From Escherichia phage sortkaff: DNA of 42,446 bases. Under the pieces are notes generated by a model. It was not told the DNA's origin and ran no database searches. It saw nothing but the letters and a program-made list of their open reading frames with translations. The position numbers and the translations under genes are program-made. The stretch lies in sequence record MN850581.1; one strand, given 5' to 3'. Numbering within the stretch: the stretch's first letter is position 1; each line of letters begins with the position of its first letter. Shown here in pieces: positions 4,632-37,645 of this stretch.

Positions 4632-5081
4632 GTAACGAAACCGTTACAGCTTGAGAATGTTACACACGATCGCGATTAACAGCGTTAACCCTGCGCCGTA
4701 GACTGCGAAACATATCCAGAGAAATGTCCACGATCCGACGGCTTCCCGGAGTGGTGTTTCCTGCTCCGGCGATGTTCTCCCTCGCGCTTTCCGGGAGGGG
4801 AATTTTATCACGTTAATAGTATGCTCCTTTGCATCACGTTTCAATGATAATTATGTGTGGAAATGGTCGGGGGTTTTGGGGTTTTAACCCCCGGCAAAAT
4901 CCCCGCCGTAACACTCAAAAAATACCCGTTACCGGAATGGCTGTAAGTTACTGAATATCATCGGTAACATTGTCGGTGTAACAGTGTTACCTTTTTGAAA
5001 CTTCGGAGCCACTGGGTAACGGTAACATAAATATATACCCCCTTTAGGGGGTATATGTTATGTAACCCGTGACCGTTACCA
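4632..5081. repeat. cluster of GTAAC/GTTAC iteron-like repeats and palindromes in a roughly 480-bp largely non-coding region
   Basis: About 13 GTAAC/GTTAC pentamers in about 450 bp: palindrome GTAACGAAACCGTTAC (4632-4647), CGGTAACAttgtCGGTGTAACAGTGTTAC (4962-4990), GGTAACGGTAAC (5015-5026), GTAACccgtgaccGTTAC (5062-5079). Also a 10-bp-arm palindrome ATATACCCCC-TTTA-GGGGGTATAT (5033-5056) and hairpin CGGGGGTT/AACCCCCG (4868-4893). Confidence 0.6.
4816..4844 (-). promoter_or_regulatory. sigma70-like promoter (-35 TTGAAA, 17-bp spacer, -10 TACTAT) with CGTGAT in the spacer and again just after the -10
   Basis: Minus-strand reading TTGAAA-CGTGATgcaaaggagca-TACTAT-taaCGTGAT; would drive the downstream early small genes (4611 leftward). 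Confidence 0.4.
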
Positions 5082-5094
5082 GGAAATGTGACCG

Positions 5095-6753
5095 TTAAAA
5101 ATCGTTAAGATCGTCGGCCCCGTCGTCGGCTTTATTGCCCCAGTCAGTCGGGCGCGGATCGTTATCCTTTATCCCACCCAGGAGCGGGATCGCTTCGTTC
5201 ATGGCGGTGAGCGTTTCGTCCCCGGCCATCTTGATCAGGATCTGCTTTTTGGTGGCATGTTCAAAGGCGCGATGGAATTGCATCTTGTCCATCGGGTCGT
5301 CGGTCCCGGTGCGCGCCCAGTCCGATAACATGCCTTTGGTAAGTTTCGGCGTCCGGTAGTTCTTTTCCTTTCGCGTCAGGTTGTACTCGTGGACAAACTG
5401 CGCCAGCCGGAGGGCGTTCTCCTGCGTCCGGCTCACCTTCTGCGCTGCGGCCTTCTCCTCGTCCGCGCCTGCGTCCTGTTTCACCAGCTCCGGCTCGTTG
5501 ATAACGATCAGGGTCGTGTCATTGCTGCCGATGTGCCACGCGGCGGGGCCGTCCTTCCCAGGTGCGGACATGCGCGCCATTGCGTCGCGTTTGGCCTTGA
5601 CCAGCTCCGGCGGGAGTTTAACGGACTTCGTGCGGAATGCGCGCCGCTCCAGCATGGCGGAGCCTTTGGCTTTGGTGTGATCGAATACGAACAAATCGCG
5701 GTCCTTGTGCTTCGAGAGCGTGATCTCAAAGGCGGAGTTAGCCTTGAGGGCAGACGCCCCACGTCCGCCGCGCGTTGCGTCCTTCCCGGAGTGGTGGAGG
5801 ATCACCACGGCACAGTCCAGCGCCTCGGCCAGCTTCTGCGCGTTGGCTAACAGGATCGCCGCCTGGTCGTTGTTGTTCTCGGTGAATGGCTCGCCGCCCA
5901 CCCAGCGCCCCGGCTCGTTGTCCTTCGGTTCGCGCCACTGCTCGCCGATCTTCTGGCCTGCGGAGTTGGCGCTATAGGTATCGATCACGACCAGCGCGGG
6001 CTTGTTGCCCTCCAGCTCGAAGAACGGGGAGGCGTTGAATTTGGCCGCGAATTTCATCAGCTCGCGCTCCCGGTGCAACGGTACGGGCTGCGCGATGATA
6101 AACAGGTTATCAAGCGGCTTGTTTTTGTTCTGGCTGTATACCCAGCCCGCATAGCGCTCTTTCACGCCGTCGGCGTCCTCTGGCGCGAAGTACAGCACGG
6201 AGCCTTTACGGACGGGCAAGCCCCCGAAGTGGTGGCCCTTCGCCACGCAGATAGCCATCTGGAGCGCACAAAACGTTTTCTTTGCCCCGGACTCGCCGAC
6301 CAGGAAGCCCACGGACCGCTCCGGGATCAGGTTCTGGATCACGAAGTTGATAACACGCGGGGCGCTGGCCTCCCGGAGCTTGTCCAGAAATTCGTCCGGC
6401 TGCTCCGCCAGCATGGCCTTAATTTTCGCCAGGTCACGCTCGCGGCGCTCCTCGGTGGTCAGGCTGCGCGGCATCATGGCGGGCTGGTTGTCCTCGTCCA
6501 GTACCATGTCCCACTCGTGATCCGCTTCGTTTGTGCCGAAGTGGTAGAGCTGCACGTCCTCTAACGTCATTCCCTGCTCTGCGGCTGCGTCCTCGTCGAT
6601 CGCCATCTGTCGGGCCAGCTCGTCCTCGCTCATTCCCGGCGAAGTCTCCAGCCATTCCGGCGGCTGCTCCAGAGGCCCGTCGTCTGGGAGGATCTGGTCG
6701 AGTAGCTCCTCTTTGCTCGGCTCCTGCTGGTCGTCTCTTTCGTCTTGGATCAT
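5095..6753 (-). CDS. RepA-like / RecA-fold (AAA_25-like) replication ATPase, putative replicative helicase or initiator
   Basis: 552-aa ORF with a degenerate P-loop VGESGAKKTFCALQMAICVAKG followed by hydrophobic-Asp Walker B (ALVVIDTYS) and an ILHHSGK motif; RBS AAGGAAAG; flanked on both sides by GTAAC repeats. Confidence 0.6.
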   Translation of the reverse strand: MIQDERDDQQEPSKEELLDQILPDDGPLEQPPEWLETSPGMSEDELARQMAIDEDAAAEQGMTLEDVQLYHFGTNEADHEWDMVLDEDNQPAMMPRSLTTEERRERDLAKIKAMLAEQPDEFLDKLREASAPRVINFVIQNLIPERSVGFLVGESGAKKTFCALQMAICVAKGHHFGGLPVRKGSVLYFAPEDADGVKERYAGWVYSQNKNKPLDNLFIIAQPVPLHRERELMKFAAKFNASPFFELEGNKPALVVIDTYSANSAGQKIGEQWREPKDNEPGRWVGGEPFTENNNDQAAILLANAQKLAEALDCAVVILHHSGKDATRGGRGASALKANSAFEITLSKHKDRDLFVFDHTKAKGSAMLERRAFRTKSVKLPPELVKAKRDAMARMSAPGKDGPAAWHIGSNDTTLIVINEPELVKQDAGADEEKAAAQKVSRTQENALRLAQFVHEYNLTRKEKNYRTPKLTKGMLSDWARTGTDDPMDKMQFHRAFEHATKKQILIKMAGDETLTAMNEAIPLLGGIKDNDPRPTDWGNKADDGADDLNDF

Positions 6754-13329: not shown

Positions 13330-13358
13330 AATATAACAAAGGATAAATGGGGCCGCAA
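13330..13358 (-). promoter_or_regulatory. sigma70-like promoter (-35 TTGCGG, 17-bp spacer, -10 TATATT) for the small-gene operon
   Basis: Minus-strand reading TTGCGG-ccccatttatcctttgt-TATATT; CGTGAT at 13377-13382 upstream; overlaps the 13-mer GTGAGAAAGAATA (plus 13321-13333). Confidence 0.4.
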
Positions 13359-13380
13359 GGATTATTTTAATTATTTCGTG

Positions 13381-13410
13381 ATAAAAGAGAAAAGGCCCCG
13401 GAGTGGGGCC
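13381..13410 (-). terminator. rho-independent terminator after the Dam operon
   Basis: Minus-strand stem GGCCCC-actcc-GGGGCC followed by UUUUCUCUUUUAU. Confidence 0.7.
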
Positions 13411-13415
13411 TGAGA

Positions 13416-30934: not shown

Positions 30935-32395
30935 TTAGCTTACGCGGACGCGCGCACGGGACAGCGTGGCAGGCGTAGCGCCTACGGTGCGGATCTTGAA
31001 TCCGACGACGGTCCGGCAACGTCCGACCTTGTGCAAAATAACGCGTTTTAGCCACTGCTGCGGCGTGTTGTAGTCGATCAGGATCTCCTGTCCGAATACG
31101 CTCCCGTCCTCCGTGGCGCTGATCCACATCCGGCTCGTTACGCTGTCGCCGCCCACGCTGGCGTCGATCTCGAAGTCGCTTAACATCATGCCCGTAAACG
31201 GCATCAGCGGCGTATAGAGGACGATCTCCTGGTCTGCCCCGTACTGCGCGCAAGTGGTCATATCAAACGCGCCCAGTACCGCCAGCGTCTTGTCTCCGAC
31301 CGTTACGCGGTTCCCTTCGTTAACGTAGTCGATCGCGCGGTGCGGTCCGCTGGCATTTTGTACGCCCGTTTTAATGATCGTCCAGACCGGGAGGCCCTGC
31401 GCCTGGCTAACCGGGTGATCGTAGACGAGCGTTTGATCCGGTAAGTGGACAATAAGCAATTTATGGCTTTCAAAGCTGATCGCCTCCAGTCGCGTTTGTT
31501 GGAGCTGGGCCACGGTGTACCCGGCCAGAATCTTTTTAACCTGCACGGAGGCCAGATCAGACCAGTCTCCGCCGCCGGGGTTCATCAGCGCGATCGTGTA
31601 CTCGCCCACGAAAGGCGACGTAAGAAATGCGAAGCTGTTCAGGTACTGGCATACGGTTTCACGGCCCAGCGTCCCGGCCTCGACGGTGTAGGATGGCTGA
31701 TTGGCGTAAACGTTCTGGGCGTCCCCGGTCAGGCCGAAAAACTCGATCGAGGCGGTCCCGAAGCAAATCACGTAATCGCGCCACGCCCTGATCGCCACGA
31801 TGCCGTCCGGCATGGACTCCGCACGATAGAACGGCGCGATCTTGTCCGGGTGGCTCTCGTCCTCCAGCGAGGAGATCCAGAAAGTGTCCGAATTTTTCAC
31901 GCTGAAAATGTAGCGCTGGCGGAGGTGGCACACGTCGTTAATGTCGCCCCAGGTGAATTGCGGGTTGTTGACGCCCGTCCCGGAGTCCAGCGGCCAGTTA
32001 CTAAACGTCTTGCGGGTCCCGTCGTAGCGGTAGAGTAAGAGCTGGTTTCCGGTCACGACGCCCTGAGAATCGCGGCTATGGGCCATAGGAGTACGATCCT
32101 CGCCGTTGACGTCGCCGACCTCCACGCCTGCGTTATACAGCTTGCCGCCCATTACCCTATAAGCGGAGTTCGAAACCGTGTTCCAGTCGGAGCCACGGGA
32201 CAGGCCCGCCACGTCCGCGACTTTCTTAAGCCCCGGCATCATGCGCATATAGCCGTTACCGCCCTTAATCTGGCGAGCAATGGCGAGCATGTTCTCCGGT
32301 AGCCGGGTGATCCAGTCGAAGTCCGTCCGGCTGCGGCCATCACCGAAAACGATCGGCAGGTTAACGACCTGCCCGCGTTGCGCATAAGCTCCCAT
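30935..32395 (-). CDS. tail hub protein (P22 gp10-like by position and size)
   Basis: 486-aa ORF; synteny with the P22 late operon. Confidence 0.6.
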   Translation of the reverse strand: MGAYAQRGQVVNLPIVFGDGRSRTDFDWITRLPENMLAIARQIKGGNGYMRMMPGLKKVADVAGLSRGSDWNTVSNSAYRVMGGKLYNAGVEVGDVNGEDRTPMAHSRDSQGVVTGNQLLLYRYDGTRKTFSNWPLDSGTGVNNPQFTWGDINDVCHLRQRYIFSVKNSDTFWISSLEDESHPDKIAPFYRAESMPDGIVAIRAWRDYVICFGTASIEFFGLTGDAQNVYANQPSYTVEAGTLGRETVCQYLNSFAFLTSPFVGEYTIALMNPGGGDWSDLASVQVKKILAGYTVAQLQQTRLEAISFESHKLLIVHLPDQTLVYDHPVSQAQGLPVWTIIKTGVQNASGPHRAIDYVNEGNRVTVGDKTLAVLGAFDMTTCAQYGADQEIVLYTPLMPFTGMMLSDFEIDASVGGDSVTSRMWISATEDGSVFGQEILIDYNTPQQWLKRVILHKVGRCRTVVGFKIRTVGATPATLSRARVRVS

Positions 32396-32404
32396 GCTCG
32401 CCCC

Positions 32405-32860
32405 TTAGTTGGCCGTGTCGTCGTCGTAAAAGCGGCTATGCGCCCAGGTCGATTGATTCCCCGCCCCGGTCGGCATGTCGTTACGGCGTTTGAGCGTCGG
32501 CACTTCGTAGAATGCCACCTTAATGTCGTCCCATTTCTCCTTAAGGAGCGCCCGGACGTCTGCGGGGAGTTCCATCTGGTTATCGATCAGCATCCTTTGT
32601 GCCATCTTGAGCGCGATCGCCTCCAGCGTCCACAGCTCCAGACCGGAGTCCTCGTTGCCATCGGGGATCCCGTCGGAGTTGGTGGTGAAGATGTACGGAA
32701 AATTCAGGTTATCCTTGATACACTCCGCCATAAAAGCCTCTAAATCAGTCAGCCCGTCAACGACGGACTGCTGATCGGCAATTAGGAGGGTTGCAGTCGA
32801 GGACAGGCCCGCACGGCGTAACGCCTGGTTAACGATCCTGATCTTCTGCAACGTCGCCAT
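32405..32860 (-). CDS. tail adaptor protein (P22 gp4-like)
   Basis: 151 aa; motifs DLEAFMAEC and MPTGAGNQ resemble P22 gp4 as recalled; synteny. Confidence 0.65.
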   Translation of the reverse strand: MATLQKIRIVNQALRRAGLSSTATLLIADQQSVVDGLTDLEAFMAECIKDNLNFPYIFTTNSDGIPDGNEDSGLELWTLEAIALKMAQRMLIDNQMELPADVRALLKEKWDDIKVAFYEVPTLKRRNDMPTGAGNQSTWAHSRFYDDDTAN

Positions 32861-33399
32861 TATTTTTTCCCTTTCGCCTCAGTGTCCACTTTCTGGCCGT
32901 CTACTTTCTGGCCGTCTTTTTTGCCGTCGTCCGCTTTGGCGTCGTCCTTCGGCTCGTCTTTCTTCGGCTCCACTTTCACGCCGTCCGGCTGTTCAGAAGC
33001 GACGATCGTCTCCCCTTCGGTGTGGACCTGATCGCCCACCAGTTTCTCGTCCTCCGGGGTCGGTGCTGCGGCTGCGGGGACGACCTGAGCCTGGCCCTCT
33101 GCCACCTGCACGGCGTCCAGTTTAAGGCGCTGCTCCTCGACCTCCTGCTCCGCCTGGGTGGATTTCTGTTCGCGGCTGGCGCGCTCGGCTTCCTTCTGCT
33201 TCGCCTCCTCGATCGCTTCGTCCAGGATGTGGATCTTGTTCGGGTGATCCACCCAGAGGCCCGACTCCAGACGCTTTTCGGCTTCCAGCGCCGGGAAAAT
33301 AGCATAGTGGACGAGGTGCGGACCGCAACGGACGGCAGTCAGGCGGATCGCTTCGGTGATGATGTTCGGGCGGGTGTAGATCATTTGTTCGTAGGACAT
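32860..33399 (-). CDS. hypothetical protein with Lys/Asp/Glu-rich low-complexity C-terminus, located between coat and tail adaptor genes
   Basis: 179 aa from MSYEQMIY...; RBS GAGGAG; no counterpart in the P22 gene order as I recall it. Confidence 0.6.
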   Translation of the reverse strand: MSYEQMIYTRPNIITEAIRLTAVRCGPHLVHYAIFPALEAEKRLESGLWVDHPNKIHILDEAIEEAKQKEAERASREQKSTQAEQEVEEQRLKLDAVQVAEGQAQVVPAAAAPTPEDEKLVGDQVHTEGETIVASEQPDGVKVEPKKDEPKDDAKADDGKKDGQKVDGQKVDTEAKGKK

Positions 33400-33441
33400 T
33401 GGAGACACTCCTCTGGTTAGTTAACGGGACAAGTATAAGCG

Positions 33442-33467
33442 AAAAAAAAGGGGCCACAAAGGCCCCC
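33442..33467 (-). terminator. rho-independent terminator immediately after the major capsid gene
   Basis: Minus-strand stem GGGGCC-uuugu-GGCCCC followed by U8; about 25 nt after the coat stop; an A8 tract precedes it on plus, so it could also work for plus-strand transcripts. Confidence 0.7.
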
Positions 33468-33489
33468 TTTCTCATATTGCCGCGCCAGC

Positions 33490-34752
33490 TTACGCGGGCT
33501 GCTTCGGCAGTAACAGCCCCACATATTCCGGGACCAGTACGGACACGCCGTAAAGCGTGGTAAAACGAGCCGTACACACGCCCGCGATGTGGTTAAAGTC
33601 CCAGGACATGATCAGGGTAGCGCCGTTCTTCGTGCGGCTACGCATGACTTTAGGCCCCATGTCGGACGGGAATGCCAGGTTGCCGAACATGAGTTCTACG
33701 GAGCCGTCGGCCCATGCCAGGTTTCCGTTAGCGGCCACTTTGTTGATCACGGTGATAGCCGCGCCGCTTGCTGCGTTGGCGTCAACGTTAGCATACGGAC
33801 GAGACGGCAGATCGGCGTTATTGACCGGGAGGATCTGCGGGGTGATCGTGATGTTGTTGCCGGAAACGTCCAGGACGCGGAACGTCTGGAGCTGGTCGGT
33901 CGTGTCCTTGCTGATCATATGGACGGAGTGAACGCCCGCGATCGTGAACGCGTCGCCCGCTTCCAGACCATGACCAGCGGAAACGGCGATGATGCCCTGG
34001 CGGTTATCGATCGGGACGTCGTTCGCGTTTTTGGACTGGACTTTGTGCGCCGGGGCAGCGGTCAGGGTGATCGCGCCAGTCGGGCCAGCGCCTACGCGCG
34101 GAGCCAGATCGACCTTATACGCGTCAAAGCTCGCGATATCCGGGATTTTCGCCTTTTCGAAAGCGCTCTGGTTGATGCCTGCGGAGTACGCACGGCCCGC
34201 CAGCTCGCCCGCGATATCTTTGTAAGAGAACGGCTCTACAAAGGCGCGGCGAGGGACGCCCATCGGGATCCCGATAGAGGTCATTTTCGCGTCCAGGGTC
34301 GCGAAACCGTTCCACAGGTCTTTACCCAGCGTACCCGTAGAGTTATCGCCTACGGTTGCGACCTGAGTCGCGTAACGGCCTGCGGTGTTCGCCACGTCAG
34401 AATCGATCTGAGCGGCCAGACGCAGGGCAGCGGCGCGGCCCATTTCTTTCATGTACTCCGGGCGACGCATTTCGCGCGCGTCCAGTTTCCACAGGACGTT
34501 CTGAGGCTCTTTGAACGCAGACGGGACCAGACGCTCCACGATATCGGTCGGCTGTTTGGAGGTCAGATCCAGACCTTCGACGATATCAGCGTGGTAACGC
34601 TGCGGGCGATAGATGACGTCACCTGCTTTCTGCATGGTTTCATCATCCGGGCGGTATTTGGAGGCGTTGTTAGACATTACGCAGGCAGCGTCAAAGCTCT
34701 CTACGTACTCCTCCCACATAATTTCTACTTGCTTTGCTACCTGGTTAGCCAT
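33490..34752 (-). CDS. major capsid (coat) protein, P22 gp5-like
   Basis: 420 aa from MANQVAKQ (RBS GGAG 8 nt upstream); C-terminal similarity to P22 coat recalled from memory (RPYANVDANAASGAAITVIN ... LAWADGS versus [20 protein letters not shown] ... VFWADDA). Confidence 0.85.
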   Translation of the reverse strand: MANQVAKQVEIMWEEYVESFDAACVMSNNASKYRPDDETMQKAGDVIYRPQRYHADIVEGLDLTSKQPTDIVERLVPSAFKEPQNVLWKLDAREMRRPEYMKEMGRAAALRLAAQIDSDVANTAGRYATQVATVGDNSTGTLGKDLWNGFATLDAKMTSIGIPMGVPRRAFVEPFSYKDIAGELAGRAYSAGINQSAFEKAKIPDIASFDAYKVDLAPRVGAGPTGAITLTAAPAHKVQSKNANDVPIDNRQGIIAVSAGHGLEAGDAFTIAGVHSVHMISKDTTDQLQTFRVLDVSGNNITITPQILPVNNADLPSRPYANVDANAASGAAITVINKVAANGNLAWADGSVELMFGNLAFPSDMGPKVMRSRTKNGATLIMSWDFNHIAGVCTARFTTLYGVSVLVPEYVGLLLPKQPA

Positions 34753-34785
34753 TCTCTGTTTCTCCAACCGATGGGCGAATAGGGT

Positions 34786-35754
34786 TTAGTCTTTCTTCTC
34801 TAACTTTGCTTTCAGCTCAAAATATGCGTCCCAGTTGCCGGAGCTGCGCGCTTTTTCCTTCGCTGCTTCGAGCTGGCCGATATTTTTAGCGCCGCCGTTG
34901 CCTTTCACCTGCGGAGCGCCGTTAACGTCTTTCTTCGCTCTCGGCGCGGTTCCTGCTCGGCGATCAATGTCGGCGATCAGGTAGCCCAGGCGAATATGGT
35001 CGTTATTATAGGCGTCCTCGATCTCTTGTCGCAATTTTTCGTTACGCGCAAGAGCCATAACGGTAAGGGTAGGCTTTTGACTGTTCAGAAGCAAAGCGGC
35101 TTGCAGCGGCTCCGGCAGGGACGACACGATCTCCTCTGCCTGCTCATAGCCCGCGAATTTCTTCACGGCCACGGCGCGCTCCTGCTTGTACACTTCGCCG
35201 CGCTCCTGGATACGCGTCTGGAATTGCTCGGCCTTAGCCTGCTGGGTTTTCTGGTGAGCTTCGGCCTCGGCCTTTTGCTCATACCATTTGTCCATCGCCT
35301 CGGCCAGCTTGCCCTCGTCCCAGTCGATCCCCTCGTCGCCTAACTGCGGCTTAGGCGGCAGATTGTCGAGACTGGTCGCGGGCTTGTGTTCGGTCTGGGT
35401 GGATTTCTGTTTGAGCTGGCGGGACTGCTCGCGGAGCTGCGCGCGTAATTTCTTCACCAGATCGGAGTCGTTCGCGCCGTCCTCTACCTCGTCAGGATCC
35501 GCCAGGGGCTGGCCGTCGAAGGTAAACTCCTCGCCCTCGTCCTCGCCGTTCGGATCGTCGGTGGTGGTGCGCTGGCGCTCCGGGTTGTCGTCGTCGTTCG
35601 GATCACCTTCGCCGCGCTCGCCATTGTCGCCCGGATCGGAGTCGTCGGTGGTGGTTTCTGCGGTCTGTTCAGCCGCTCCGCCGCCAGCGTCGCCGCCCTG
35701 AGTGCCGTCGTCAAAGGCTGCGTAGTATTTTAACCATGCGTTACGAAATTTCAT
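34786..35754 (-). CDS. scaffolding protein
   Basis: 322 aa, acidic N-terminus, helical middle; C-terminal coat-binding helix resembles P22 gp8 (WDAYFELKAKLEKK versus VETYRKLKAKLKGIR as recalled); directly upstream of coat. Confidence 0.75.
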   Translation of the reverse strand: MKFRNAWLKYYAAFDDGTQGGDAGGGAAEQTAETTTDDSDPGDNGERGEGDPNDDDNPERQRTTTDDPNGEDEGEEFTFDGQPLADPDEVEDGANDSDLVKKLRAQLREQSRQLKQKSTQTEHKPATSLDNLPPKPQLGDEGIDWDEGKLAEAMDKWYEQKAEAEAHQKTQQAKAEQFQTRIQERGEVYKQERAVAVKKFAGYEQAEEIVSSLPEPLQAALLLNSQKPTLTVMALARNEKLRQEIEDAYNNDHIRLGYLIADIDRRAGTAPRAKKDVNGAPQVKGNGGAKNIGQLEAAKEKARSSGNWDAYFELKAKLEKKD

Positions 35755-35811
35755 TGTAGATCCCCGTTTTGTTGCATACGCGATGTATTTCGCCCATCGG
35801 TGGCGGGGATA

Positions 35812-35841
35812 AGTGTAAGAGAAGTTTTACATCATATGCAA
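35812..35841 (-). promoter_or_regulatory. candidate promoter upstream of scaffold (-35 TTGCAT, 18-bp spacer, -10 TACACT)
   Basis: Minus-strand reading of the 127-bp gap between the cassette and the scaffold gene; weak call. Confidence 0.25.
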
Positions 35842-35881
35842 GGGGGAAAGGTTTAAGGCCGATCCCCCCAGAGGTGGCGGG

Positions 35882-36148
35882 CTATTTCGTGGCGGCTTTC
35901 ACGAGGCATTGAGACAGATATAGCGCTTCGTGGTGCGGCGGGACCGAAGCGGGGATCACGCAGTACAGCGCGACGTTAGGCCCCGTGTTCGCGTGGATCA
36001 TTTCGCTGGCGACTATCCGCCACTTTTCGCCGTCCGGCCCGGTCAGGATGCCGTCGAGGTCGTGTAGTTCTTCCTTGACCTGCGCGATCCGGCTTAACGT
36101 TGTCGGTCCCTTCCCTGGGAACGCGAGATAGTGATGGACGGTTTTCAA
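35882..36148 (-). CDS. hypothetical protein (cassette gene D)
   Basis: 88-aa ORF whose start overlaps the stop of gene C (ATGA). Confidence 0.55.
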   Translation of the reverse strand: MKTVHHYLAFPGKGPTTLSRIAQVKEELHDLDGILTGPDGEKWRIVASEMIHANTGPNVALYCVIPASVPPHHEALYLSQCLVKAATK

Positions 36149-36615
36149 AATGGTATGTCCAGCGGCTTGTCGTTGTTGGCCGGAGGAACGATCTCGGCGT
36201 CCTCCACGTCCTCCGCTTTGCGCGGGTTCACTTCGCGGGCTGCGTCCGCTGCGGCCACAAAATCGCCCTCCAGCGGCCCCTTGTAGGTCAGTTGTTTAAT
36301 GCTGGCGATATCTGCGAGGAGCTTCGACTCTGCCACTACAAAGTCGGCGCGGAGTTTCTGGAGTCCGGCTTCCATGATCGGGAGGCTGATCTCTGCCTGC
36401 TCCTCGGCGGTCGGCATGGTGTAATCAATATCGATCTCGATCTCTTTTAACAGGACGTAAGCCGCATTTTTGCCGCCTGAATTAATATGCTCCTGGACGC
36501 CCCAGATCGCGCCGTAATCGTAACTTTCCACGGACACGGATCCGCGCTTGTCGCCGCCCTGGCTACCTTCGGCCACGCAAAGGCAAACGTACATTGTTTT
36601 TTTGATAGTTGGCAT
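36145..36615 (-). CDS. hypothetical protein (cassette gene C)
   Basis: 156-aa ORF; RBS AAGAGGA; no recognisable motif. Confidence 0.65.
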   Translation of the reverse strand: MPTIKKTMYVCLCVAEGSQGGDKRGSVSVESYDYGAIWGVQEHINSGGKNAAYVLLKEIEIDIDYTMPTAEEQAEISLPIMEAGLQKLRADFVVAESKLLADIASIKQLTYKGPLEGDFVAAADAAREVNPRKAEDVEDAEIVPPANNDKPLDIPF

Positions 36616-36664
36616 TGTCTCTAATCCTCTTTGGGGTGGGGCGGGACGATGCCCGCCGCCGGGG

Positions 36665-37081
36665 TTATTTGTTGCGAGCGCCGATCATGCCCTGCCACAT
36701 GAAAACGACGGTATCAGATAACAGCTCTTTCACCTCGTCCTCGCCCATCTGCTCATAAAGCGAATCAAGCGCGCCGGGGATCTGCTCCCATAGTGCCTTT
36801 TGCCCTTCTTCCACCTGCGCGTCCGTCGGCTGGAGCTGGACCTCGATCGGGGAGGGTTCAGTGTCGCCGGACTTGACGCGGGGGTGAGCGTTAGCCATGA
36901 GGGCCTCGGCCTGCATACCCACCAGCGCGAACGCCGTCGCCAGTGCCGCCAGATCCTCCTCGGTCGGCTGCTGGATAAACATCTGGGCCAGACGGGCCTC
37001 CATAGTGCGGACCTTATCGCCGATCCCGTTCTCGTCGCACTCGGCCAGAATGATCGCGCGCGCTGCTTTTACTTGATCCAT
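36665..37081 (-). CDS. hypothetical acidic protein (cassette gene B)
   Basis: 138-aa ORF; RBS GAGAGAGAA. Confidence 0.65.
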   Translation of the reverse strand: MDQVKAARAIILAECDENGIGDKVRTMEARLAQMFIQQPTEEDLAALATAFALVGMQAEALMANAHPRVKSGDTEPSPIEVQLQPTDAQVEEGQKALWEQIPGALDSLYEQMGEDEVKELLSDTVVFMWQGMIGARNK

Positions 37082-37132
37082 TGTGTTCTCTCTCGTCGGT
37101 TAATGATGCCCCGGCGGTCCGGGGCGGTCTGG

Positions 37133-37570
37133 TTATGCGTTGCCCTGCGCCTGAGCGGCCAGGAGCTGGATAATCGGCTCCACGTCGGCCTCCGCCGCCG
37201 GGATAGGCAGGTCAACCACGCCGCGCGGCTCGCCTTTGGAAATGTGGAATTTCCAGATCGCCATCACGTCGTCCAGCGAGTAGCCCGCCAGGATCTCCTC
37301 GTGGATCTTCTGCGCGCCGTTGGTTTCGTTAAACTCCAGGACCTGATCAACGGTCGGCATCTGGTTCCCGAATTTCGCCATTGTGCGGGCCATGACGACC
37401 ACGCCGACGCCACGGGACAGGAAGGTGTTACCCTGCTCGCCGCCGGAAACCATCACGGCGATCTCCGGCTCGTCGGTGTTCGGGTGGTAGGCAAGGGCGA
37501 GGGTAACGAAGCCGCCGCGCGGGGTGACTTCGAAAACGCGAGCTGCTGGGGTGGTGGTGATCTCTTTCAT
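37133..37570 (-). CDS. hypothetical protein (cassette gene A)
   Basis: 145-aa ORF; RBS GAGAGAGGA; preceded by its own promoter and operator-like palindrome. Confidence 0.65.
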   Translation of the reverse strand: MKEITTTPAARVFEVTPRGGFVTLALAYHPNTDEPEIAVMVSGGEQGNTFLSRGVGVVVMARTMAKFGNQMPTVDQVLEFNETNGAQKIHEEILAGYSLDDVMAIWKFHISKGEPRGVVDLPIPAAEADVEPIIQLLAAQAQGNA

Positions 37571-37588: not shown

Positions 37589-37645
37589 ATCACGATAGCG
37601 TGATGTTGTGTGAGAAAGAATAGCCCGGACGTACCGGGCTGTAAA
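37589..37645 (-). promoter_or_regulatory. promoter (-35 TTTACA, 17-bp spacer, -10 TATTCT) plus 16-bp near-palindrome ATCACGATAGCGTGAT in the leader
   Basis: Minus-strand reading TTTACA-GCCCGGTACGTCCGGGC-TATTCT; the spacer is the portal terminator stem-loop; near-palindrome at plus 37589-37604 lies about +6 to +21. Confidence 0.45.
37611..37640 (-). terminator. rho-independent terminator after the portal gene
   Basis: Minus-strand stem AGCCCGG-uacgu-CCGGGCU followed by AUUCUUUCUC, about 30 nt after the portal stop. Confidence 0.55.

Follow-up and report, generated by a model that had tools for sequence, protein, structure and literature searches.

A conserved predicted terminator and a P22-type slot gene follow the coat gene of Escherichia phage sortkaff

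The interval between the major capsid (coat) gene and the head-tail adaptor gene of Escherichia phage sortkaff contains two ordinary conserved parts of the P22-type head gene cluster, here in a virulent Sortsnevirus. One is a hairpin with a U-tract that has the features of a canonical Rho-independent terminator. The other is a gene for a 179-aa protein that, judged from its sequence, is the local long member of a family (orf69/orf186/gene 6) found between coat and gene 4 in P22-like phages. Taken as a whole, an account of the interval that combines this terminator, a candidate promoter abutting it and the slot gene as a family member is in our view likely to be correct. The 179-aa gene is not a new insertion, and the finding is largely ordinary. 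What is new is an invariant TATACT that, together with a TTG in the hairpin loop, suggests a combined terminator and promoter by which scaffold and coat would be transcribed as a unit separate from the other genes.

Results

Gene order around the coat gene

The window analysed here is a stretch of 42,446 nucleotides (sequence record MN850581.1). Over positions 32300-34900 it is ~99.6% identical to Klebsiella phage vB_KpnS_IME279 (Sortsnevirus), in which the gene order is the same. The coat gene, the hairpin, the 179-aa gene and the homologue of P22 gene 4 all lie on the minus strand. The coat gene (33490-34752), whose counterpart in IME279 is gp37, belongs to the P22 gp5 family (PF11651 P22_CoatProtein, E = 7e-73; phrog_283, E = 1e-98) and ends with a TAA stop codon at 33492-33490. 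Upstream of it, also on the minus strand, lies the scaffolding protein gene (34786-35754; phrog_648, E = 1e-78), which would be the first gene of the proposed scaffold-coat unit. The head-tail adaptor gene, homologous to P22 gp4, occupies 32405-32860 (PF11650, E = 3e-22; phrog_637).

A conserved hairpin and U-tract after the coat gene

The predicted intrinsic terminator ('t coat') spans 33442-33470 on the minus strand. Its stem consists of six G:C pairs, formed by G33466-C33461 with G33455-C33450, around the loop UUUGU (33460-33456), and can be extended to 10 bp through G33467:U33449 and A33468-70:U33448-46, with a folding energy of -17.1 kcal/mol. An uninterrupted U8 tract (33449-33442) follows directly 3' of the stem. 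By these sequence features the hairpin and U8 are a textbook Rho-independent terminator; that transcription terminates there we infer from the sequence and its conservation. The first-pass annotation had placed a strong terminator about 25 nt past the coat stop codon. The location just after the stop was right; in the sense orientation, the stem lies 22 nt from the stop codon.

Sites of this kind were far more frequent in the window than in shuffled sequence. Nine terminator-type sites in the window passed strict criteria (a perfect stem of at least 6 bp with at least 4 G:C pairs, followed by 6 or more T in 8), compared to 0.52 ± 0.84 in 100 dinucleotide shuffles. Stems made up of G:C pairs alone with T7 or longer behind them occurred three times in the window and never in 200 shuffles. 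The ~20-kb structural cluster has only two terminator-type hairpins, the coat hairpin being one of them. A built-in terminator scan, which used lax criteria and returned a total count at the chance level, listed just a weak plus-strand reading of the coat hairpin. A search of the window against Rfam matched no family.

The hairpin was kept in Kc237, Sortsne, KMB41, Lumpael, IME_EC2 and ST231, as well as in two IMG/VR contigs and a Logan contig. The stem sequences differ among these relatives, with arms such as GGGGCC/GGCCCC, GGGGAGCC/GGCUCCCC and GGGGGAGC/GCUCCUC. RNAalifold on a MAFFT alignment was uninformative, as loops and stems of differing length fell out of register, and we used per-sequence folds instead. 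In these, the coat hairpin folded in 10 of 10 related phages at -14 to -19 kcal/mol, and it was followed by U7-U8 in all relatives. Conservation of the hairpin, with changed stem sequences, spans all Sortsnevirus and Murrayvirus relatives examined. The earlier call of a strong terminator after the coat gene is supported by the six G:C pairs, the U8 tract and this conservation as structure. Its position fits a role in making scaffold and coat in excess.

A promoter-like element that overlaps the terminator

A sigma-70-type promoter-like element can be read at 33432-33459 on the minus strand, to which the invariance of its -10 hexamer in 10 relatives and its position weight matrix (PWM) score point. 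The putative -35 element, TTGTGG (33459-33454), lies in the loop and 3' arm of the hairpin, the 16-nt spacer includes the U-tract, and the -10 element, TATACT (33437-33432), is located 4 nt past the U-tract and 32 nt ahead of the ATG of the 179-aa gene. TATACT was unchanged in 10 phages from at least three lineages, in which the spacer varies on both sides of it. The motif GCTTATACT was kept in all relatives (GCATATACT in IME_EC2), even in a divergent contig (L022) with a different downstream spacer. In the spacer of each relative the TATACT site was the top PWM match, at 10.7-13.7 bits. The window's own arrangement, TTGTGG-16-TATACT, scored 11.3 bits, 38th in the whole window, with -35 and -10 matches of 3/6 and 5/6. 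Relatives with TTGGCT-16/17-TATACT scored 12.6-13.7 bits, and the -35 match was 3-4/6 across the set.

We found no TATACT after three strong hairpins elsewhere in the window. A second promoter-like element, conserved in nine phages, lies upstream of the scaffold gene at 35812-35841 on the minus strand (TTGCAT at 35841-35836, an 18-nt spacer, and TACACT at 35817-35812). The motif CTTAyACTTrTCCC is common to this site and the post-coat site, a likeness that was noticed post hoc. Searching for GCTTATACT with one mismatch gave matches not above chance, and the longer motif was needed to link the two sites. Another promoter-like arrangement, TGGACA-18-AATAAT at 32888-32859, was rejected, as its -10 element falls on the gp4 start codon.

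The invariance of TATACT, 4 nt past the U-tract, and the -35-like TTG in the loop of the hairpin suggest a combined terminator and promoter. That a sigma-70-type promoter abuts the terminator and restarts transcription for the downstream genes is a reading of the sequence that we hold tentatively, as a real possibility which falls somewhat short of being probable.

The 179-aa gene and the parts of its product

The 179-aa ORF starts with an ATG at 33399 and ends with a TAA at 32862-32860. A Shine-Dalgarno sequence, GAGGAG (33408-33413, minus strand), is located 8 nt upstream of the ATG, and its (G)GAG is conserved in the alignment. The GTG start at 33408 proposed by the ORF finder falls inside this ribosome-binding site. 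The TAA overlaps the gp4 ATG by 1 nt (TAATG), and the gene is start-stop coupled to gp4. Relative to Kc237, dN/dS was 0.09 in the N-terminal domain (calculated over codons 1-75, nt 33399-33175), 0.12 in the helix and 0.40 in the tail. The ORF that the first-pass annotation had listed is, by its ribosome-binding site and its purifying selection, a real gene.

The predicted protein has three parts. Codons 1-52 (33244-33399, minus strand) encode a conserved beta-beta-beta-alpha domain that ends in SGLWVDHP (AF2 pLDDT 81 for the domain alone). Codons 53-104 (33088-33243, minus strand) encode a predicted single long helix rich in E, K, Q and A, with a pI of 4.75 and a pLDDT of ~84 falling to 58. 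Codons 105-179 and the stop codon (32860-33087, minus strand) encode a tail rich in K, D, E, P and A, predicted to be disordered from its composition and a pLDDT below 50. With 13 K, 11 D and 8 E among its 75 residues, the tail (residues 105-179) was correctly described at first sight as rich in Lys, Asp and Glu. It ends in a conserved basic motif, KKDGQKVDGQKVDTEAKGKK, that is invariant across two genera, in both of which homologues of the gene occupy the same slot. A 109-aa form in this slot (P0038) has a much shorter linker and keeps both ends, including the C-terminal motif.

Membership in the slot family of P22-like phages

The first-pass annotation had regarded the gene as absent from the P22 order. 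This did not survive comparison with related genomes, in which a homologous gene was found at this position in P22-like relatives. The slot is filled by orf69 in P22, by gene 6 in Sf6 and by orf186 in epsilon34, L and ST64T. In the P22 record the interval from gene 5 to gene 4 has an annotated stem-loop (6102-6119) and orf69 (6135-6344), and the Sf6 record has a terminator 't coat' and gene 6 annotated. In epsilon34, L and ST64T the slot holds the 186-aa version, and Brookers and Bas106 also have a gene between coat and gp4. Equivalent hairpins are visible after the coat genes of epsilon34, Bas106 and lambda.

The sequence link runs through an N-terminal domain of ~45-50 aa, with (M/I)(I/L)Y at its start and a G-W-x-x-(H/N)-P motif after the helix. 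BLASTP aligned WVDHPNKI here with WLDHPSKL in the P22-type family, and the domain matched phrog_1175 with E = 0.0027. Profile-profile comparison (hhalign) of the window's N-terminal domain with the P22 orf69 family gave a probability of 92% (E = 6e-7) over 30 columns. It is through this domain that the protein is homologous to P22 orf69, epsilon34 gp6 and Bas106_0006; Sf6 gene 6 was placed in the family by position only, not by sequence. At the other end, the protein described here has an acidic linker and the basic C-terminal motif, and the 3' end of its gene is coupled to the start of gene 4. The family architecture is a conserved N-terminal domain of ~50 aa (GW-x-DHP), a flexible, acidic linker whose length varies greatly, and a short basic C-terminal motif that is also conserved. 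In sortkaff the linker comprises a helix of ~50 aa and ~50 disordered residues, and in the 186-aa version of epsilon34 a WDGH domain stands between the N-terminal domain and the basic tail. The domain-linker-basic-tail architecture recurs in at least 330 protein clusters, all unnamed, from enterobacterial phages and prophages. PHROGs splits the slot family into four (28530, 1175, 3769 and 3251), which appear to be one family with a common layout.

Database-wide searches reached less far. An exhaustive profile search with HMMER of 1.84 billion representative proteins returned only three clusters of the clade and two long, probably spurious proteins; it missed P22 orf69 at database-wide E-values, and profile-profile comparison and the PHROG scan were needed for the link. 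With just the N-terminal domain as query, a word-indexed protein search returned a single fragment. Two short P22-type members gave only sub-threshold matches to Pfam DUF7302. Literature retrieved for orf69 mostly concerned unrelated ORF69s, and the 'gene 6' of a paper on Sf6 evolution was gene 61, not the slot gene.

In the Lederbergvirus members P22, Sf6, epsilon34, L and ST64T, as in sortkaff, the coat gene is followed by a GC hairpin whose tail is T-rich and then by the small ORF and gene 4; the ORF overlaps the gene 4 start with its 3' end, and its product has a basic motif near the C-terminus (PMC8022706). The U-tract is an uninterrupted U8 here, whereas it is interrupted in P22 and Sf6. 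The spacer measures 42 nt from the U-tract to the ATG here, compared to ~11-15 nt from the hairpin foot to the start codon in P22 and Sf6, and it contains the invariant TATACT; the P22 and Sf6 sequences read contain no TATAAT-like hexamer. Unlike the Lederbergvirus forms, the N-terminal domain here carries an insertion of ~12 residues between strands 1 and 3. The middle of the protein is a long helix and a disordered K/D/E tail here; P22 has no such middle part, epsilon34 has a WDGH domain in its place, and an (EP)n linker occurs as well. The gene overlaps gp4 by 1 nt here and by 17 nt or more in Lederbergvirus.

Discussion

Transcription of the head genes

In the layout we propose, the terminator would end or strongly reduce transcription arriving from the scaffold and coat genes. 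It would thereby leave these two, whose products are very abundant, as a separate, highly expressed unit, and the downstream low-copy genes for head completion, ejection and the tail would receive less transcript. Since ~11 kb of essential genes lie downstream of the hairpin, a promoter or antitermination is needed; the putative promoter would restart transcription of these genes, which would otherwise depend on read-through alone. A precedent for the first part is T-phi of phage T7, a strong intrinsic terminator immediately after capsid gene 10 that enriches capsid mRNA over the downstream genes for tail and internal proteins. T-phi acts on T7 RNA polymerase, and the T7 downstream genes rely on partial read-through, whereas in sortkaff host RNA polymerase is presumed to be at work and a promoter-like element overlaps the terminator.

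It is also conceivable, if somewhat unlikely, that the hairpin is mainly a barrier to 3' exonucleases that forms the stabilising end of the scaffold-coat message, or an RNase processing site, with the downstream genes expressed by read-through or antitermination and TATACT not a promoter. In P22, Sf6 and lambda one late transcript is made under Q-type antitermination, their equivalent stem-loops have interrupted U-tracts, and the P22 record labels its own copy merely a 'putative stem-loop'; the promoter-like site in the window has a moderate score. This reading is countered by the uninterrupted U-tracts, U8 here and U7-U8 in all relatives, which are the signature of efficient intrinsic termination, by the invariance of TATACT beside a diverging spacer, and by the same motif upstream of the scaffold gene.

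Possible roles of the slot protein

Neither Pfam nor NCBIfam had a match for the 179-aa protein, its PHROG is annotated 'unknown', and a sequence-profile search of the PDB returned only chance matches to GGA1. From the layout of the family we suggest, as a possibility on the unlikely side, that the protein is non-structural, is made in small amounts and serves head completion or DNA packaging as a two-ended adaptor or chaperone, in which it would resemble gpFI of lambda. Its N-terminal domain and basic C-terminal peptide, held apart by a spacer of tunable length, would join two partners. Between P22 and epsilon34/L the coat proteins hardly differ (PMC2629481), but the N-terminal domains of the slot proteins are only about 36-39% identical, which argues against a tight, co-evolving contact with the coat.

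Lambda likewise has a GC hairpin directly 3' of its major capsid gene E, and the next gene, FI, encodes a small non-enzymatic protein ahead of the head-completion gene FII. GpFI has a small folded domain joined to a long linker that is flexible and charged; it does not occur in virions and helps with packaging. Accessory functions of gpFI in packaging have been cited (PMC11868608). Membership of the 179-aa protein in the gpFI family itself was rejected, as we found no profile similarity: hhalign against gpFI gave a probability of 0.1%, and the PDB search gave no sequence match to 2LSM. The analogy rests on gene position and on the layout of a domain plus flexible linker, which stands in reverse order here relative to gpFI. 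A fuller version, speculative and in our judgement improbable, would make the orf69/orf186/gp36 family the gpFI counterpart of the P22 lineage: a non-virion, two-ended adaptor produced from a composite terminator-promoter junction, which would insulate a scaffold-coat mini-operon with a highly conserved, possibly autoregulatory leader at 35755-35811, a candidate operator for the scaffold protein.

The first-pass annotation had taken the gene to be foreign to the P22 order and suggested that it could encode a decoration or internal protein. A foreign gene for a protein that decorates the capsid, or for a virion protein that is internal or ejected, we consider very unlikely. The charged disordered tail and long helix are features of some internal or surface-exposed virion proteins, the gene sits among structural genes, and the long charged form is limited to a small clade (three clusters among 1.84 billion representative proteins). 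The slot gene is nevertheless present with a homologous N-terminal domain in P22, epsilon34, L, ST64T, Brookers and Bas106, and by position in Sf6. No known decoration family matched by sequence or fold, and Pfam, PHROGs and fold comparison showed no similarity to cement or ejection families either; moreover, the variation in linker length (109-190 aa) is ill-suited to a decoration protein that binds a lattice. We know of no orf69 product in the well-studied P22 virion, and our literature search found no virion proteomics for any Sortsnevirus or Murrayvirus relative. The small N-terminal domain resembles that of the ribosomal protein L9, and the lysine-rich tail might interact with RNA or DNA. 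These features would suit a late nucleic-acid-binding regulator, for example of late mRNA translation or stability or of DNA condensation, a role to which we give little credence.

An accessory, moron-like position, with a gene for host interaction or counter-defence and not for assembly, also seems unlikely to us. It would account for free swapping and remodelling of the slot gene between phages with near-identical coats. The slot gene does differ sharply between P22 (69 aa) and epsilon34, L and ST64T (186 aa, with the WDGH domain inserted) despite coats that are >99% identical, linker length is highly variable, and we know of no essential P22 gene that maps between genes 5 and 4. L and P22 have gp4 proteins that are 97% identical and coats that are >99% identical (PMC2629481; PMC8022706), and orf186 has been described as interrupting a region of high synteny (PMC8022706). 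Against such a role, the gene keeps its position, its overlap with gene 4 and both conserved ends from the temperate Lederbergvirus to the virulent Sortsnevirus and Murrayvirus, which is unusual for a moron. Expression of the slot gene would be late, from within the structural cluster, and the lack of any match in the Pfam and NCBIfam searches likewise speaks against it.

Implications for P22-type phages

Both the post-coat terminator and the small gene ahead of gene 4 have long been annotated in P22-like phages, and sortkaff carries no extra gene at this place. The slot family is without an assigned function even in P22, which is among the best-studied phages. With the combined terminator and promoter as our reading of the junction, the virulent Sortsnevirus and Murrayvirus seem to have split the single late operon of the P22 type by means of hairpin-plus-promoter junctions. 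On this model, which can be tested, such junctions would allow coat and scaffold to be over-produced without Q-type antitermination.

The coat gene is followed by a terminator-type hairpin

Across 32300-34900 the window shared 99.6% identity with Klebsiella phage vB_KpnS_IME279 (NC_047862, genus Sortsnevirus) and 80-85% with Kosakonia phage Kc237 and Escherichia phage Sortsne. The minus strand carried the scaffold gene (34786-35754), the coat gene (33490-34752; TAA stop at 33492-33490), a 179-aa ORF (32860-33399) between the coat gene and the gp4 homologue, and then the homologues of P22 gp4, gp10 and gp26 with the ejection proteins; from this order the head module is of the P22 type. The IME279 record lacks ~249 bases that the window has between its scaffold gene and gp39 homologue (35755-36145), including an 88-aa ORF (35882-36148, minus) without a PHROG match; the window in turn was missing the gp41 homologue (~270 bases, 37081-37133), so that it represents a distinct isolate despite the coat-region identity. 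The portal and scaffold genes are adjacent in P22, whereas here three small genes of unassigned role (156, 138 and 145 aa) intervened (36145-37570, minus), only one of them with a PHROG match (35278, annotated function unknown). In Kc237, two genes between portal and scaffold carry the annotation 'internal virion protein'.

A hairpin, GGGGCC-UUUGU-GGCCCC (33466-33450, minus), started 22 nt past the coat stop with a U8 tract (33449-33442) directly 3' of it; counting one G:U and three A:U pairs, its helix was 10 bp and -17.1 kcal/mol. Strict hairpin-plus-T-run sites numbered 9 in the window versus 0.52 in dinucleotide shuffles, nearly all at gene ends and correctly oriented, and for all-GC stems with at least T7 behind them the figures were 3 and 0. 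A built-in terminator scan, with lax criteria and totals at chance level, reported the coat hairpin just as a poor plus-strand reading. The GC hairpin, its U8 tract and the 179-aa ORF described by the first-pass annotation were borne out, an observation that is real and well beyond chance. That the hairpin may attenuate transcription is a reasonable reading.

The homologous spacers of Kc237, Sortsne, four Murrayvirus phages, two IMG/VR contigs and one Logan contig were folded, and each formed a hairpin of 10-11 bp (-14 to -19 kcal/mol) with U7-U8 behind it; the stem sequences varied (GGGGCC/GGCCCC, GGGGAGCC/GGCUCCCC, GGGGGAGC/GCUCCUC). The hairpin is not restricted to the Sortsnevirus/Murrayvirus clade: a stem-loop at 6102-6119 is entered in the GenBank record of P22 as 'similar in location to stem-loops in phage HK97 and phage lambda', the Sf6 record names a terminator 't coat', and counterparts were visible in epsilon34, Bas106 and lambda. 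Those of P22-like temperate phages and lambda differed in having an interrupted U-tract and weaker stems (-12 to -15 kcal/mol).

The 179-aa gene belongs to the P22 order

The 179-aa ORF started at ATG 33399 with GAGGAG 8 nt upstream, and its stop overlapped the gp4 start (TAATG). Its final 75 residues held 13 K, 11 D and 8 E, the charged tail noted at first pass. Against Kc237, dN/dS rose from 0.09 in the N-terminal domain through 0.12 in the helix to 0.40 in the tail, and the ORF is therefore a genuine protein-coding gene. An antisense 132-aa GTG ORF (33022-33420, plus) is probably a high-GC artefact, since the dN/dS pattern favours the minus-strand frame.

The same annotation had held this gene to be absent from the P22 order, which comparison with relatives' genomes contradicted. 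In P22, orf69 (69 aa) lies between genes 5 and 4; the slot is occupied by gene 6 (61 aa) in Sf6 and by a gene for a 186-aa protein in epsilon34, L, ST64T, ST104 and BTP1. The phage L genome paper lists orf186 as 'detailed function unknown' and as breaking the coat to head-completion synteny (PMC8022706). The N-terminal ~50 residues of the window's 179-aa protein aligned with P22-type proteins, beginning at the first strand, (M/I)(I/L)Y, and reaching the G-W-x-D-H-P motif; BLASTP paired WVDHPNKI with WLDHPSKL (E 0.003), the N-terminal domain matched phrog_1175, the orf69 family (E 0.0027), and a Sortsne/Murray profile matched the P22-type profile with 92% probability (E 6e-7). These scores, combined with the identical position, establish homology to the P22/epsilon34/Bas106 type; kinship to Sf6 gene 6 is positional only.

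A promoter-like element adjoins the terminator

Four nt past the U-tract, GCTTATACT occurred in every relative (GCATATACT in IME_EC2), including the divergent contig L022, though the sequence farther downstream differs there. With a TTG in the hairpin loop it formed TTG(G/T)(C/G)(T/G)-N16/17-TATACT, the top sigma-70-type match in each relative's spacer (10.7-13.7 bits with an approximate PWM built from consensus frequencies). The -10 lay 32 nt before the ATG with the ribosome-binding site inside the predicted leader, a geometry that fits a promoter for the 179-aa gene. The P22 and Sf6 sequences inspected, with only about 11-15 nt from hairpin end to start codon, had no TATACT-like hexamer there.

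The extended motif at this junction, CTTAyACTTrTCCC, recurred exactly once elsewhere in the window, inside the TTGCAT-N18-TACACT that precedes the scaffold gene; the match was noticed after the fact. That region was conserved in nine phages, with its own hairpin preceding the promoter-like element. The spacer (35755-35885, minus; L002:6505-6645, L003:6450-6590, L004-L007 ~440-590 and L022:20-160 in relatives) had 80% mean identity in 8 phages of two genera, exceeding coding DNA, and ran from the hairpin through TTGCAT-N18-TACACT/TAAACT to a nearly invariant ~57-nt leader (CCCGCCACCGATGGGCGAAATACATCGCGTATGCAAC...) containing the inverted repeat CGATG-N9-CATCG. An Rfam search of it gave no match. 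Scaffold synthesis is autoregulated in P22; this may be a regulatory leader and possibly an operator for such autoregulation.

Scaffold and coat would then be expressed as an insulated unit, with a promoter ahead of the two genes and a terminator behind them, and genes downstream of coat would be re-initiated at the terminator-promoter junction. Because the window's own TATACT site scored only moderately and the motif match is post hoc, we infer this model with some doubt, as a possibility a little short of even.

The only other strict hairpin in the structural cluster followed the portal gene (AGCCCGG-UACGU-CCGGGCU, block 37617-37645, minus), with a weak U-tract and an A-rich stretch upstream, within a spacer of conserved TTTACA-N17-TATTCT; across IME279-like, Kc237 and Sortsne phages the block hardly varied. 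TATTCTTTCTC recurred 3' of two minus-strand hairpins, 13411-13393 and 37640-37622 (window ~13330-13411 and 37617-37627), and may be a shared -10 plus initial-transcribed motif. Elsewhere, a perfect 10-bp palindromic hairpin, ATATACCCCC-TAAA-GGGGGTATAT (5033-5056, minus), lay just downstream of a RepA-like AAA ATPase gene (5095-6753) and was followed by repeated GTTAC/GTAAC-containing sequence; it may serve as a terminator, an origin or an operator.

Two conserved ends and a variable linker

AlphaFold predicted for the 179-aa protein a beta-beta-beta-alpha domain (residues 4-46, pLDDT about 81-90), a single long helix (53-104) and disorder from 105 onward. Sortsnevirus and Murrayvirus kept the N-terminal domain and the final ~25 residues (…KDGxKVDGxKVxT..KAKK), with a middle divergent in sequence and changing in length; a 109-aa metagenomic homologue in the same slot (P0038) retained both ends around a much shorter linker. 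P22-type members join the N-terminal domain to a basic KKPGRKPK-like motif by a linker that varies in length and is acidic or made of (EP)n. The linker was an (EP)n repeat of variable length in P0035, P0121 and P0075 (E. coli, Salmonella and Serratia prophages), and the AGWFSHPDDLLKD motif was duplicated in one E. coli variant, which suggests repeat-driven change in linker length. Epsilon34 gene 6 (L019:1501-2061, 186 aa) combined an orf69-like N-terminal domain, a WDGH domain (Pfam PF25311, E 2e-40) and the P22 orf69 basic tail; the 186-aa type also occurs in L and ST64T (orf186). WDGH is a domain inserted into the linker, and a literature search found no mention of it. A profile search placed at least 330 clusters in the slot family, every one labelled 'hypothetical'; when 1.84 billion representative proteins were searched, just three clusters at 50% identity had the long charged form.

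Pfam, NCBIfam and PHROGs scans gave the protein no functional assignment, a PDB sequence-profile search returned chance hits only, and BFVD nothing, so the protein is assigned here to no functional family. The decoration role suggested at first pass is unsupported; a virion-associated protein seems very improbable, and a nucleic-acid-binding regulator hardly less so. An accessory or counter-defence gene, though unlikely, would agree with the near-identical coats of P22 and epsilon34/L, and the 97% identical gp4 of L and P22, beside very different slot genes (PMC2629481; PMC8022706). Four points, the conserved slot, its coupling to gp4, the two conserved ends with a tunable spacer, and the analogy in position to lambda FI, which follows E and its hairpin, lead rather tentatively to a two-ended adaptor or chaperone that would be absent from the virion and take part in head completion or packaging. 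A comparison with gpFI by hhalign was negative.

The coat hairpin and slot gene are therefore an already annotated arrangement of P22-like phages, not new to this phage; what is added here is the promoter-like element fused to the terminator, as we infer it from sequence.
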